From Candidatus Adlerbacteria bacterium (lineage in GTDB: Bacteria > Patescibacteriota > Minisyncoccia > Phycocordibacterales > SBAW01), in contig JAPLUW010000001.1 of NCBI GenBank assembly GCA_026397405.1, positions 239,825 to 303,824 on the forward strand: DNA of 64,000 nucleotides. The letters run 5' to 3'. Positions 40,778 to 58,137 of the stretch are shown here, piece after piece. Made by a program: the position numbers and the translations under genes. How positions within the stretch are numbered: position 1 is the first letter of the stretch; each line of letters begins with the position of its first letter. The notes below the pieces were generated by a model, which made no database searches, was not told where the DNA came from, and saw only the letters and a list, made by a program, of their open reading frames with translations.

Positions 40778-41272
40778 TTGAAGATTAAGCGCCTACCGCT
40801 CTATAAGTACGAGCTAACCAAGCTCGTACTTTACTGGTCTCTCCTGCCGCTGTCCTTCTGGGCATTCAGCATGATGGTCCAGTACTGCCCCCAAGCTGTG
40901 CTGGCGGTGACGAGCGTCGTCAAGCCGGTCTTGGCTTGGCTGAGCCACTACTTCTTGGACTTGCTTTGGAACCTCACCGTTCCCGAGCCTGTCCGACAGC
41001 AGGTGAACCAGCTAGGTGGGTTCCTGGCTCCGCTGGCCAAGCCCCTCGCTAAGGGCATTGCCTGGGGCAGCCAGAAAGTGGCGGAGGTAATGGATGACCG
41101 AGCTAAGGCTGCTCTAAGCCTTGCGTTCGGCGGGTTCATCCTGATCTCGCTGCTCCCCAGGCTGCTGCGCTTGGCAGTAATGCCCTGGGTCTATGCCAGG
41201 CTGGTGAAGGACATTCTCTCCAACACCAGCCAAGAAGAGCTCCTCGCGGAGCTCGAACGCAGGAAGAGCTAA
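40778..41272 (+). CDS. GC-rich small membrane protein, unknown function (TTG start)
   Basis: 164 aa with 3 predicted TM. Codon third positions are visibly GC-rich compared with neighbours. It has its own promoter and terminator. Confidence 0.5.
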   Translation: MKIKRLPLYKYELTKLVLYWSLLPLSFWAFSMMVQYCPQAVLAVTSVVKPVLAWLSHYFLDLLWNLTVPEPVRQQVNQLGGFLAPLAKPLAKGIAWGSQKVAEVMDDRAKAALSLAFGGFILISLLPRLLRLAVMPWVYARLVKDILSNTSQEELLAELERRKS

Positions 41273-53499: not shown

Positions 53500-53571
53500 G
53501 CTCCCGTGGTGAAATGGATATCATGTCTGCCTTCGAAGCAGCTGTTCCAGGTTCGAATCCTGGCGGGAGCA
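53500..53571 (+). tRNA. tRNA-Arg (anticodon TCG)
   Basis: Acceptor GCTCCCG/CGGGAGC, T-arm CCAGG-TTCGAAT-CCTGG, anticodon loop CTTCGAA, 4-nt variable loop. Confidence 0.85.
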
Positions 53572-53626
53572 CACGCGACGTGTGCCTAGACAAAAGTTTG
53601 TGATATAGTCTTCAGTGTTTGCGGAT

Positions 53627-53697
53627 GCGGATATGGTTTAGTGGTAGAACACATCCTTGCCAAGGATGAGACGGGAGTTCGATTCTCCCTATCCGCA
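53627..53697 (+). tRNA. tRNA-Gly (anticodon GCC)
   Basis: Acceptor GCGGATA/TATCCGC, anticodon stem CATCC/GGATG, loop TTGCCAA, T-arm GGGAG-TTCGATT-CTCCC. Confidence 0.9.
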
Positions 53698-53974
53698 CTA
53701 GGAACGACCAAAATGAAAGATTTCTTTCATTTTTAAGAGACGACGTGCGAAACAAGCTCTGCTTATCCGCACTAAGTACGATATAAGATAAAAGACGTCT
53801 ATGGTGTGGACAATAGATCTCTTGAAAAATAAAGACATATCCACTTTTCTGGGGATAACTATGGGGACAGGTGTATTAAAGACGTGTCTTTAAGTGGGTT
53901 TTATGGCTTATAATGGCATGTAGTGTTTCTAAGATGACACTTTATAGGTTATTTGGTTCACATGAAACAGTTTC

Positions 53975-54388: not shown

Positions 54389-54439
54389 GTAGGGAAGCGG
54401 GGTATCGTATATCGGTAGTACGCTTGCTTTGGGAGCAAG

Positions 54440-55348
54440 ATGGCTCAGTTCGATTCTGAGTACCCCGACAAAATTAATCGTATGGAACGGCTAACTCTTG
54501 TAACAAAACCGTCCGACGGGTATGAACTACTCGACTCGGGTGGGGAAGAGAAGCTTGAGCGATTTGGCGATGTTGTGCTTCGCAGACCGGACCCGCAGGC
54601 GTTGTGGCCTAAAAAGTTAGGAGAGAGCGAATGGAATAAAGCCACAGGCACGTATGTGCGTGAGGGTGGGGAAGGTGGCAAATGGGTGGGGAAGCTGCCT
54701 ACAGAGTGGAAAATAAGTTTTGGAGGATTGCAATTTCTGGTCAAACCAACCTCGTTTAAGCACACAGGGTTGTTTCCTGAGCAGGAGTCAAATTGGGTTT
54801 GGACTGCTGAACAAATTTCTAAAGTTGGTAGGGAAGTCTCCGTTCTCAATCTCTTTGGTTACACAGGTGGTGCAACGCTTGCTGCGGCAAAAGCTGGAGC
54901 GCAGGTGACGCATGTAGATGCATCAAAGACAGCAGTTGCGTGGGCACGCGAAAATGCACAAGCGTCGGGGTTGGAAGAAGCACCTATACGGTGGATTACT
55001 GAAGACGTGCTGTTGTTTGTCCGCCGCGAAATTGCACGTGGGAAGAAGTATGACGGCATTATCATGGACCCGCCAGCATTTGGGCACGGGCCAAAAAACG
55101 AAATTTGGAAGATAGAAGAGAATTTGATTGAACTTATAGACCTCTGCGGCCAACTTTTGTCGGACCAACCACTCTTCTTTTTGGTAAACGGCTACGCGGC
55201 AGGATATTCGCCTTTGGCGTTTGCATACAACTTGGAGCAATTTGAAAAAAAGTACGGCGGGGCACTAGAATATGGCGATTTAGGGATTGAGGAGCAGGGA
55301 AGTGGCCGCATACTTCCTGCTGGTATTTTTGCTCGGTGGAAAAAGTAG
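54440..55348 (+). CDS. class I SAM-dependent RNA methyltransferase (RlmI/RlmK-like)
   Basis: LNLFGYTGGATLAAAKAGA and DPPAFG motifs. Confidence 0.75.
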   Translation: MAQFDSEYPDKINRMERLTLVTKPSDGYELLDSGGEEKLERFGDVVLRRPDPQALWPKKLGESEWNKATGTYVREGGEGGKWVGKLPTEWKISFGGLQFLVKPTSFKHTGLFPEQESNWVWTAEQISKVGREVSVLNLFGYTGGATLAAAKAGAQVTHVDASKTAVAWARENAQASGLEEAPIRWITEDVLLFVRREIARGKKYDGIIMDPPAFGHGPKNEIWKIEENLIELIDLCGQLLSDQPLFFLVNGYAAGYSPLAFAYNLEQFEKKYGGALEYGDLGIEEQGSGRILPAGIFARWKK

Positions 55349-55481
55349 CTTGACAGGTTTTACACTCGGCAGTACGGTGGACATATGGAACGTTCGCAAG
55401 CCCTCTTCGTCTGGATGATTTACCTTCTTACACGAGGGGTTTTTGCAACGCGGTAATCCAACTAAGATACCAAAAAAGATG

Positions 55482-55515
55482 CAAGGACCTCCACAAGGGG
55501 TCCTTGTTTCGTTTC
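55482..55515 (+). terminator. rho-independent terminator after the methyltransferase gene
   Basis: CAAGGACC-N9-GGTCCTTG followed by TTTCGTTTC. Confidence 0.5.
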
Positions 55516-55558
55516 GGGAGACTATTTTAGAGTTCGTTCAAACGCGCTAAGGCGCACA

Positions 55559-56932
55559 ATGGGAGAGAAGATAATGGCTGAATTGGAACAGTTGGCAAAA
55601 GGCCAAGAGACATCGTTCGATGTGCTCGATGCCCACCTTGGGCAGCCGACGCCCGTCTCGTTCGGACCGATGGTGGTCAATGACACCATTCGGTCCGATA
55701 TGGGGCCGTTCAAGAGCTTGCCCGAATACCGGGTGGTCTATCCGCAAACGGTCGTTCAAGCTCTGGCTGTGCTGGTTGCGGAATACAACGCGGCATTCGC
55801 GCCACTTGTGGCTGCTAACCAGGAAACGGACGCCGACTACAGGCACTGCTTCGTCAATGGGGCGCCGATCAACTTCGGCGTTCAGATCGACATGCCGGCC
55901 TTGCCCGAGGCGTTTCTCGCGCTTGCCGTTAGTATGTCGGTGGAACAGGTTGTCGAGATCTTACGGAGACGAATCTTCGAGATCGAAAACTCGCTGGCGA
56001 TGTACCAGCTGCTTAGGAGGCAATTTGCCAGGGGAGGAATTTCCTTCTTTGAAAGTCGCTTCGCCGACTTCATGGACACTCTTCGGCGACATACCGGCAA
56101 GCCAGTTGCTCTGCTGGCTGTCACCGACCAGAAGTACGAGGCGATGCGTAGCTCGGAATTCGGGAAGTCTCTACACGACAAGCTTCCCAAGGAAGAGTTG
56201 CTCGATATATCAGGGTTTGACGCGATGTTCAGCCCTGACGGCTTTTCCCGGCATCTTAGGCAAAACGGCGGGGAAAGTGCATACGCGCTGTATGCACGTA
56301 CGTCCGACCCTGTTGCGGTCTTGAGGGATCCCACGGTTCGTGTGGGACATGAACTTCTTGGCAACAATGAGGTTCGGCACAAGGTGCGGCGGGATGCACT
56401 GACCTTCAATGTTGATACGCCGACTGCAGAACCCTGGCATCGGCTGAATGACACCAAGATGTACATGCCCGCTATGGGTATGGGCGTCTTGCTCCCAGGT
56501 CACGTCGACCTTACAACGTTCCTGAAACGCAGCGCGACGAAGGAGTATTTCGAAGCGTGTGGGGTCGACCCTGAGGCCGTAATCGGAGGGCAAGCTGCTC
56601 TGCGAGCAAAGCCCGCACTCGGAACGTATGGCTGCTATGGCCATATCCACGGCCGTATCGGTGTGAACAAATTTGAGGGCAACCTTAATCGCGAACGGCA
56701 GCGCAGGGGCTCCTACATCCTGCAACCCGAACTGCCTCTTCTCAAGTTGGTCAATGAGCTCGACGAAGAGGACTCCTACATTGCTATCGACCGGAACTTC
56801 CTCGGTTGGAACGGCAATGGATACGACTTCCTTGGTGGATTCCGGTCACTTATGCCGGACAAAACCATGGAAGCGCGTAAGGGTCGAAATCACGGCAGCA
56901 AAGAGACCCTCTGGGCCGAAGTGGTGACCTAA
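55559..56932 (+). CDS. GC-rich 457-aa hypothetical protein, possibly a ligase-like enzyme
   Basis: A long ORF with clearly higher GC than its neighbours. I could not assign a family by eye. Confidence 0.55.
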   Translation: MGEKIMAELEQLAKGQETSFDVLDAHLGQPTPVSFGPMVVNDTIRSDMGPFKSLPEYRVVYPQTVVQALAVLVAEYNAAFAPLVAANQETDADYRHCFVNGAPINFGVQIDMPALPEAFLALAVSMSVEQVVEILRRRIFEIENSLAMYQLLRRQFARGGISFFESRFADFMDTLRRHTGKPVALLAVTDQKYEAMRSSEFGKSLHDKLPKEELLDISGFDAMFSPDGFSRHLRQNGGESAYALYARTSDPVAVLRDPTVRVGHELLGNNEVRHKVRRDALTFNVDTPTAEPWHRLNDTKMYMPAMGMGVLLPGHVDLTTFLKRSATKEYFEACGVDPEAVIGGQAALRAKPALGTYGCYGHIHGRIGVNKFEGNLNRERQRRGSYILQPELPLLKLVNELDEEDSYIAIDRNFLGWNGNGYDFLGGFRSLMPDKTMEARKGRNHGSKETLWAEVVT

Positions 56933-57027
56933 AACCCATTTCGATCGTTTGTACCGGACATTGGTTAGAAGAGGAAACTCTTTCTGCCAATGTCCGGTAT
57001 TTTTTTACCCGCATAGGCAAACATGGT

Positions 57028-58137
57028 ATGAATAGAGACATGAAAGAAGATATTTTAAATTTGGCACAAGAATTTGTGTCTATTCCATCTAACCCGGACA
57101 ATACAGAGGCACTCGCTACTATTTTAAATCTTGCCCTTTCAAAACTTTCTAATTTCACTATTGAGCGTTTTGAACGAAACGGTGCTACAAGCGCACTAGT
57201 ATATGTAGGTCCTGTACGGCCAAAAAAGTTTAAAGTATTGCTTAACGGCCATTTGGACATAATCCCGGGTAAGCCGGAGCAGTACACCCCAGTGGTAAAA
57301 GGTAAACGGTTGTACGGCGTTGGAGTTATGGATATGAAGGCAAACCTCGCCAGTATGTTGTATGCCTTTGCGGAAACTGCACATAAAGTCTCGTACCCAC
57401 TAGGGCTTCAACTCGTTACAGACGAGGAGCTCGGTGGTTTTGACGGAACAAAATATCAAGTCGAACAAGGCGTGAGAGCGGATTTTGTTTTAACCAGCGA
57501 ACCAACTAACTTTGATATTGTGTACAAAGCACGTGGAATTATATGGTTAAAAATCTCCTCTCGTGGCAAAACAGCACACGGGGCATACCCATGGCGCGGA
57601 GAAAATGCCATTTGGACGATGCACGAGTTTCTTGCTGCGTTGAAAAAACAATATCCTATTCCTACTAAAGAAAAATGGGTAACGACGGTCAACGTTGCAA
57701 AAATTGAAACGAACAATCAGTCGCTTAATAAAATTCCTGACGATTGTACTGTTTCTTTAGATATTCGATACATCCCGGAAGATACAAACGTACTACAAAA
57801 AATCAAAAAGCTTTTACCAAAAGGTTTTTCTATGGAAGTACTTACGGACGAGCCAGCGCTTGATACTGATTCCAATAATTCCTACATACAAGCGCTTCAA
57901 GGCGTAAGTTCGAAAATTCTTAAGAAAAAAATTACCAAACGAGGTGCGTTCGGGTCGTCAGACGCAAGACATTTTGGACGATACAAATGTCCTGGTATCG
58001 AATTTGGCCCAATAGGGGAGGGTATCGGTAGCGACAATGAGTGGGTAGATATCCCAAGTTTAGAAAAATTTAATACTATACTCACAACGTTCCTTTTGGA
58101 ATTAGATATATCATCTGTTCCAGTAAAAAAGCGCTAA
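57028..58137 (+). CDS. M20-family metallopeptidase (ArgE/DapE-like)
   Basis: LLNGHLDIIPG, GVGVMDMKANLAS, and a stop/start overlap with the downstream gene. AT-rich codon usage. Confidence 0.85.
   Translation: MNRDMKEDILNLAQEFVSIPSNPDNTEALATILNLALSKLSNFTIERFERNGATSALVYVGPVRPKKFKVLLNGHLDIIPGKPEQYTPVVKGKRLYGVGVMDMKANLASMLYAFAETAHKVSYPLGLQLVTDEELGGFDGTKYQVEQGVRADFVLTSEPTNFDIVYKARGIIWLKISSRGKTAHGAYPWRGENAIWTMHEFLAALKKQYPIPTKEKWVTTVNVAKIETNNQSLNKIPDDCTVSLDIRYIPEDTNVLQKIKKLLPKGFSMEVLTDEPALDTDSNNSYIQALQGVSSKILKKKITKRGAFGSSDARHFGRYKCPGIEFGPIGEGIGSDNEWVDIPSLEKFNTILTTFLLELDISSVPVKKR

Follow-up and report, generated by a model that had tools for sequence, protein, structure and literature searches.

Gene X, as we call it here, is the first of two adjacent plus-strand genes in a stretch of 64,000 nucleotides (the window) of the Candidatus Adlerbacteria contig JAPLUW010000001.1 (positions 239,825 to 303,824 of the forward strand). 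Its probable coding sequence (55574..56932, 452 aa) specifies a member of an unclassified family with the fold of ATP-grasp ligases. The second gene (57028..58137, plus strand, 369 aa, with a possible alternative start at 57040) specifies an M20 deacylase of the ArgE/DapE family. We consider it probable that X is an ATP-dependent carboxylate-amine ligase and that it is paired with the M20 enzyme as a self-contained two-gene module. The proposal is built on the open reading frame (ORF) of X and its conserved start, its family of homologues, the fold of its AlphaFold2 (AF2) model, the synteny of the two genes and their co-variation. An initial annotation of this region, made from the DNA letters, had pointed to a GC-rich orphan gene for a possible amidoligase or ATP-grasp-like enzyme, and had suggested that it was foreign, acquired or related to defence. 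What that annotation observed was largely correct and its interpretation half right: X is ATP-grasp-like, and neither foreign nor defence-related.

X is an orphan with regard to named families, though not with regard to relatives. Neither Pfam nor NCBIfam has a family that matches it, Pfam has none for any of the 59 aligned members of its family, and searches of PDB sequences, by phmmer and with the family profile, gave no match even at E<10. In contrast, when 5.8 billion proteins were searched by word index, at least 195 homologues came back. The top two are 96% and 62% identical to X (the closest, P0001, comes from a 156,946-bp contig of a Candidatus Adlerbacteria metagenome-assembled genome, or MAG) and the remaining matches are 42-50% identical and all unnamed. 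Among 1.84 billion representatives, an exhaustive search by HMMER found only 191 relatives, 156 of them at E<1e-30. The family is compact and isolated. More than 50 positions are invariant in the alignment of 59 sequences. The conserved blocks (FEIENSLAMYQLL, LLAVTDQKY, SEFGK, SGFD, YARTSDP, INDTK, LRxKPxxGTYGCYGH, QPE, IDRNF, GGFRSLMP and GRNHG) make up the pattern of an enzyme; the first of them served as the scan pattern that retrieved X relatives. About 15 representatives (P0121, P0125, P0129, P0130, P0170 and others; loci L065 and L066) are 880-1190 aa long. In these the X domain is C-terminal, the N-terminal ~500 aa have no Pfam match and the M20 gene still lies downstream; a comparison of 20 long members with Pfam for Rosetta-stone fusions found no known domain in the extensions. 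Some genomes have two copies of X. In L020 (4027-5427 and 6001-7362) they stand in tandem before a single M20 gene, the L036/L057 pair occupies two separate parts of the same contig, and the L010/L046 pair is divided between two contigs of a single MAG.

The AF2 model of X is a multi-domain alpha/beta fold that can be superimposed on known ATP-grasp members. Foldseek, which the initial annotation had recommended for the predicted structure, matched the model to the ATP-grasp proteins 3n6x (E 2.8e-6) and human glutathione synthetase (GS; E 1e-5), and structural alignments with proteins of the GspS family run at ~10% identity. On the strength of the model, X is assigned to the ATP-grasp superfamily, on the branch of GspS and eukaryotic GS, and its family is one that had not previously been classified within that superfamily. 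The early guess of an amidoligase or ATP-grasp-like enzyme is thus borne out by the predicted fold, while sequence methods gave it no confirmation. An ATP-grasp fold would also be compatible with X being something other than a ligase, either an enzyme of the kinase type, like synapsin and the inositol-phosphate kinases, or a binding protein with no catalytic activity; we consider this quite unlikely.

The model also offers a candidate active site (residue numbers throughout are those of the longest, 457-aa reading frame). K351-P352 ends a strand (348-352), the loop A-L-G-T-Y-G-C-Y-G-H follows, and the next strand (363-365) begins directly after it. K351, P352, G358, Y360 and G361 are invariant in the 59 sequences. 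The codons from K351-P352 to the Gly-rich loop G-T-Y-G-C-Y-G-H362 (56609..56644, plus strand) would therefore specify a candidate phosphate-binding Lys and flexible P-loop. These residues sit at the place of ATP-grasp phosphate binding, although the role is assigned by position in the model and not from superposition. This region overlaps the Gly/His cluster noted in the initial annotation, GTYGCYGHIHGRIG, which is indeed present, at residues 356-369. For the metal site, the invariant Q109-I-D111 (codons 55883..55891, plus strand; strand 107-113) is a candidate for the counterpart of the E-x-N motif that binds Mg2+ in glutathione synthetase. The invariant E141-I-E143-N144-S145 (codons 55979..55993, plus strand), which belongs to the signature FEIENSLAMYQLL, is an alternative candidate metal or substrate motif.

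The partner of X was identified as an M20 enzyme by TIGR01910, by its PDB matches and by its synteny with X. It matches the NCBIfam model TIGR01910 with E 7.9e-49, its 166.8 bits being below the cutoff of 217.6, and its scores against the M20 equivalogs are all far below the curated cutoffs (148 bits against 381 for DapE, 94 against 298 for ArgE). By NCBIfam cutoff it lies outside every named equivalog (DapE, ArgE, LysK and CPG2). The best PDB match is 2rb7, with DapE next and carboxypeptidase G2 also among the matches. Its orthologues carry both Pfam domains, PF01546 (Peptidase_M20) and PF07687 (M20_dimer). The DapE motifs H-x-D, DMK, DEE and E-x-T are retained, as is the His of the dimer domain, and the first four metal ligands of Haemophilus influenzae DapE (HiDapE; H67, D100, E135 and E163) are conserved. 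The partner belongs to a distinct ArgE/DapE subfamily.

That the two genes belong together is seen in their distribution. In three relatives whose X is only 45-47% identical to that of the window, the M20 gene follows X. Scanning one genome for each GTDB species gave 55 X loci, of which 47-48 have an M20 orthologue downstream on the same strand, the gap usually being 0-270 nt; additional contigs likewise keep the M20 gene downstream of X. The M20 orthologues are 47-66% identical outside the same-species locus L009 (93%). All ORFs of 60 aa or more in the 6 kb on either side of X were clustered all-against-all, and conservation proved to be confined to X itself (in 54 loci) and M20 (in 48). All other neighbours are confined to at most three loci, and the other recurrent clusters are shadow ORFs that overlap X or M20. 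No third partner gene is conserved within these 6 kb, nor is any ORF of 20-90 aa that might encode a small carrier or precursor. Pairwise distances among X proteins and among M20 proteins are correlated (r=0.56, a value that was reached by 2 of 2000 Mantel permutations). The pair has largely been inherited as a unit.

The module is found in Adler-, Jorgensen-, Lipton-, Lloyd-, Azam-, Davies-, Levy-, Roizman-, Morani-, Peregrini- and Dojkabacteria and in Saccharibacteria; it is widespread yet patchy in the Candidate Phyla Radiation (CPR)/Patescibacteria. Several records carry taxon labels that look doubtful. 'Gammaproteobacteria'-labelled MAGs group with Levyibacteriota in the nearest-neighbour analysis, and a short ORF, MNINYSNNYWFHFYPL..., ~70-180 nt upstream of X, is common to L017, L021 and L022 (two 'Gammaproteobacteria' MAGs and one Levyibacteriota). 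The grouping and the shared ORF suggest that several TPA_asm labels are wrong and that the MAGs concerned are CPR genomes; the 'Gammaproteobacteria' and 'Methanocellales' labels look unreliable. We found no published description of an X-M20 cassette in the literature.

What might such a pair do? The ArgE/DapE/LysK group of M20 enzymes cleaves amides on the alpha-amino group, in N-acyl amino acids as well as in N-acyl diamino acids, and the combination of an amide-forming X with an amide-processing M20 enzyme is for that reason the most economical. By analogy with ATP-grasp ligases, X would use ATP/Mg2+ to convert the carboxylate of its substrate into an acyl-phosphate, which would be attacked by an amine to yield an amide. 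M20 would then cleave, or further process, that amide of a carboxylate with an amino group (of an amino acid, of a diamino acid such as ornithine, lysine or diaminopimelate, or of a polyamine derived from one). The two enzymes could form a synthetase/hydrolase couple on the same amide, as in the bifunctional GspS (synthetase/amidase), or could carry out consecutive steps of salvage. The use of ATP, the ligase chemistry, the coupling of both enzymes on the same metabolite and the class of substrate are predictions of this scheme.

A different use of the same two chemistries would be the modification of a protein or peptide. X would then act on a C-terminus or a side-chain carboxylate (as do RimK, LysX/ArgX and tubulin tyrosine ligase) and the M20 enzyme would be a carboxypeptidase that removes the added residue. 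This alternative is in our judgement improbable.

Two kinds of gene neighbourhood provide leads to the substrate. In two related Paceibacteria genomes, and in two arrangements (L044, 5971-9935; L050, 1405-6664), X lies beside an ornithine/diaminopimelate/arginine decarboxylase gene and a deoxyhypusine-synthase-like gene. This polyamine context fits the structural matches of X to polyamine ligases, and we take it as a lead. (The L044 copy of X has no M20 gene; a second cassette, L049, is on the same contig.) Elsewhere the cassette lies between glyA (serine hydroxymethyltransferase) and folD in one genome (L006, 6604-11325) and adjoins the genes for DHFR, ThyA and 5-formyltetrahydrofolate cyclo-ligase in another (L067, 10001-14472, the same genome as L023). 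One may accordingly imagine a folate module in which X glutamylates a pteroyl or folyl carboxylate as a non-orthologous FPGS/DHFS, with the M20 enzyme as a hydrolase of the carboxypeptidase G or p-aminobenzoyl-glutamate type. These two neighbourhoods and the presence of carboxypeptidase G2 among the PDB matches of M20 speak for it. Against it, the context occurs in 2 of ~57 genomes, which is close to chance, M20 is closer to DapE/ArgE than to carboxypeptidase G2, and we know of no folate-glutamate ligase with a fold of the X type; we hold the folate module to be very unlikely.

The proposal of a ligase-M20 module has to be set against a number of observations that weigh against it. The polyamine context is that of one lineage only, and it, too, occurs in 2 of ~57 genomes, near chance, as does the folate context in its two other genomes. 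A few X copies (L038, L044, L046 and L054) have no adjacent M20 gene (two X loci that lack M20 are contigs that end at X). A strong hairpin with a T-run separates X from M20 in the window and in many other genomes, so that the two genes need not be co-transcribed. In the M20 protein of the window the last Zn ligand of HiDapE, H349 (in 'TIHKVNE'), is replaced by Gly (in 'GIGSDNE', ~residue 334). At least 90% of 46 M20 orthologues have Gly at this position, with a conserved Asp two residues on. The replacement implies that the second metal site is altered, and because of it the chemistry of the M20 enzyme may differ from that of DapE.

The ATP-grasp assignment of X also has its weak side, in that homology to any ATP-grasp family could not be demonstrated at the level of sequence by Pfam, NCBIfam, the PDB profile search or hhalign. 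The hhalign E values (0.58 against YgiC, 0.7 against a YgiC/YjfC/Gss profile, and 0.38 and 0.52 against human GS and a profile of 16 vertebrate GS sequences) are not significant. Global alignment with shuffled controls gave z=1.9 for X and human GS and z=-0.2 for X and YgiC. (The human GS query is 100% identical to 2hgs_A, and the profile searches for GS and for YgiC/YjfC/Gss yielded close orthologues only.) A register of motifs that had been drawn by eye was not recovered by the shuffled-control global alignments. Three invariant candidates, Q109-x-D111, E141-x-E143-N144 and D411-R412-N413, compete for the Mg2+ role, and the lack of sequence-level homology leaves the catalytic residues of X unmappable by superposition. 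The only alignment that recurs with hhalign, itself non-significant, places N87..D93-Y94..Q109-I-D111 of X opposite N124-R125..D127-Y128..E144-I-N146 of human GS (the 'QIEIN' region). The human stretch N124-N146 carries two of the Mg2+ ligands of that enzyme. The mapping of Q109-I-D111 on to them may be followed as a lead only.

The base composition of the two genes had been the ground for regarding X as foreign. The contrast itself is as first described: X has a GC content of 0.559 and a GC content at third codon positions (GC3) of 0.655, whereas the M20 gene has 0.408 and 0.357. Across the window, 54 long ORFs have a mean GC of 0.486 (standard deviation 0.038) and a mean GC3 of 0.480 (standard deviation 0.080), placing X about two standard deviations above the mean. 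(The highest values of the window, GC 0.584 and GC3 0.776, belong to a 164-aa ORF at 40778-41272.) The contrast is not specific to the genome of the window, since X is the GC-richer gene in 45 of the 47 genomes with the pair, the mean difference being 7.3 points for GC and 12.6 points for GC3. It is present at all three codon positions and in the use of Arg and Lys (7.2% and 5.0% in X, 3.7% and 10.6% in M20). Compared with flanking genes in 38 genomes, X has the highest GC3 of the locus in 17 and M20 the lowest in 13, the mean deviations being +0.069 for X and -0.063 for M20. L020 is the most extreme case, with GC3 of 0.905 for X and 0.461 for M20. Transfer of the pair from one donor cannot account for opposite deviations of adjacent and co-inherited genes. 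The case shows that a local anomaly of GC may be a trait conserved within a gene family and not a sign of horizontal transfer.

That X is a recently acquired foreign accessory or defence gene, unrelated to its neighbours, is a reading that is largely refuted, and we give it hardly any credence. It can call on the excess of GC and GC3, on the hairpins that flank X on both sides, and on the patchiness of the family, on its star-like tree, in which records with the same label cluster little, and on its varied genomic contexts. Set against these are the recurrence of the GC excess in other genomes, with M20 deviating in the opposite direction, the conservation of an M20 partner that co-varies with X, and a synteny that is identical throughout in the close relative. 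X has no match among PADLOC models or PHROGs and no relatives on IMG/VR contigs, and no mobile-element genes are adjacent to it in the window. An ancient transfer among CPR lineages is conceivable.

The longest ORF of gene X (55559..56932, plus strand) does encode 457 aa, as originally given, but the real product is probably the 452-aa protein that starts at 55574. Its ATG is conserved in the 96%-identical relative, and a Shine-Dalgarno-like GGAGAG (55562..55567, plus strand; kept in L009) lies 6 nt ahead of it; the first ATG of the ORF is not conserved, ATGGGAGAG being changed to CAGGAGAG in that relative. The 210 nt upstream of X contain first a TTGACA hexamer (55350..55355, plus strand), 2 bases past the stop codon of a methyltransferase gene, and after it a hairpin with a T-rich tail (55481..55517, plus strand; hairpin at 55481-55507, 11 bp, 6 of them GC; kept in L009), which was picked up by a terminator scan. 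This hairpin is likely to be the terminator of the methyltransferase gene, as had been supposed. The promoter that had been assigned to X is another matter, and is not established: the TTGACA is there, but it precedes the hairpin, its -10 element is poor (TACGGT) and no consensus promoter was called at the site. Promoter-like matches upstream of X are at the level of shuffled sequences (5 against 5.1 +/- 2.1) and terminator-like matches are mildly above it (9 against 4.6 +/- 2.5). A riboswitch or structured leader is unsupported: Rfam yielded none at gathering threshold in the leader of X (chance-level matches only in E-value mode), and its predicted folding is not better than that of shuffled sequences (z -1.7).

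The hairpin between X and M20 (~56952-57006, plus strand; stem CCGGACATTGG/CCAATGTCCGG, followed by T7) is stronger than the one upstream of X and resembles an intrinsic terminator, the spacer having a dG of -35.7 kcal/mol. In about 20 other, unrelated genomes the stop codon of X is followed directly by a near-perfect hairpin (10-17 bp), to which a T-run is often added, and in others the X-M20 gap is 0-9 nt; co-transcription of the two genes thus varies between genomes. Several X-M20 spacers (L010-L057) open with TGTTACAAT or TGTTATAAT, which is extended -10-like and overlaps the 5' arm of the hairpin. Farther upstream in the window, tRNA-Pro(tgg) (54398-54469) overlaps by 30 nt with the 5' end of the longest reading frame for the RlmI/RlmK-like methyltransferase gene (54440-55348), which for this reason probably starts at an in-frame ATG at ~54482. 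tRNA-Arg(tcg) and tRNA-Gly(gcc) lie shortly before tRNA-Pro(tgg), at 53500-53698. On the other side of X, at a distance of at least ~6.4 kb, the close relative of the window (L001, 15759-17362) has a YcaO gene and then a gene of the nitroreductase family, which could be an azoline-type peptide-modification pair.

A large part of bacterial diversity belongs to CPR/Patescibacteria, organisms whose conserved genes mostly lack an assigned function and which are generally credited with a minimal metabolism. Seen as a ligase-M20 module, a run of "hypothetical proteins" becomes a defined and testable pair of enzymes across many CPR lineages, and identification of its substrate would credit these organisms with a capability for biosynthesis or salvage, of the kind that they are usually described as lacking. 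One may go further, tentatively and with a good deal of doubt, and suppose that X and M20 constitute a CPR-specific pathway for a metabolite new to bacteria, for example an amide of a polyamine or diamino acid, that is made and recycled by reduced, host-dependent cells. X would then found a new ATP-grasp family, and M20 a new subfamily of ArgE/DapE enzymes in which the second metal site has been remodelled. If this were true, the CPR amide would be a functional counterpart of glutathionylspermidine or peptidyl-spermidine.

Among known systems, the GspS family (PF03738, GSP_synth; E. coli GspS, YgiC/YjfC and trypanothione synthetase) is on the same structural branch as X. YgiC and YjfC are peptide-spermidine ligases. 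X has no detectable sequence homology to this family, its partner hydrolase is a separate M20 metalloenzyme whereas GspS has a fused CHAP cysteine amidase, and it is a protein of CPR bacteria while the GspS family is one of Proteobacteria and kinetoplastids. Eukaryotic-type GS and homoglutathione synthetase (PF03917, PF03199) and the nematode GS-like effectors differ from X in the non-significant profile comparisons already given, in lacking the family-specific invariant motif FEIENSLAMYQLL, and in that the neighbourhood of X has no gamma-glutamylcysteine ligase gene. The circularly permuted ATP-grasp proteins (3n6x and 3k1t, both from Methylobacillus flagellatus) are also close, but X has no match to Pfam CP_ATPgrasp; the usual neighbours in families of that kind are alpha-E and transglutaminase-like genes, and an association with M20 is not known. 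The fungal ligase Cp1B of E-64 biosynthesis (9cjn), which joins epoxysuccinate to an amino acid, belongs to a eukaryotic secondary-metabolite cluster, has no M20 partner and has no sequence similarity to X. As ligase/hydrolase systems, LysX/ArgX with LysK (LysW-mediated lysine/arginine biosynthesis) and carnosine synthase with carnosinase also resemble X-M20. The X loci, in which only X and M20 are conserved, have no LysW-like carrier and no LysZ, LysY or LysJ genes within 6 kb on either side; X belongs to a different ATP-grasp branch, and the M20 protein falls below every equivalog cutoff and lacks the last His metal ligand. X would add a sequence-orphan family to the GspS/glutathione synthetase branch of the ATP-grasp superfamily. 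What is familiar in X-M20 is the fold and the general chemistry that it predicts; what is new is an unclassified ATP-grasp family that is locked, in CPR bacteria, to a distinct subfamily of M20 enzymes.
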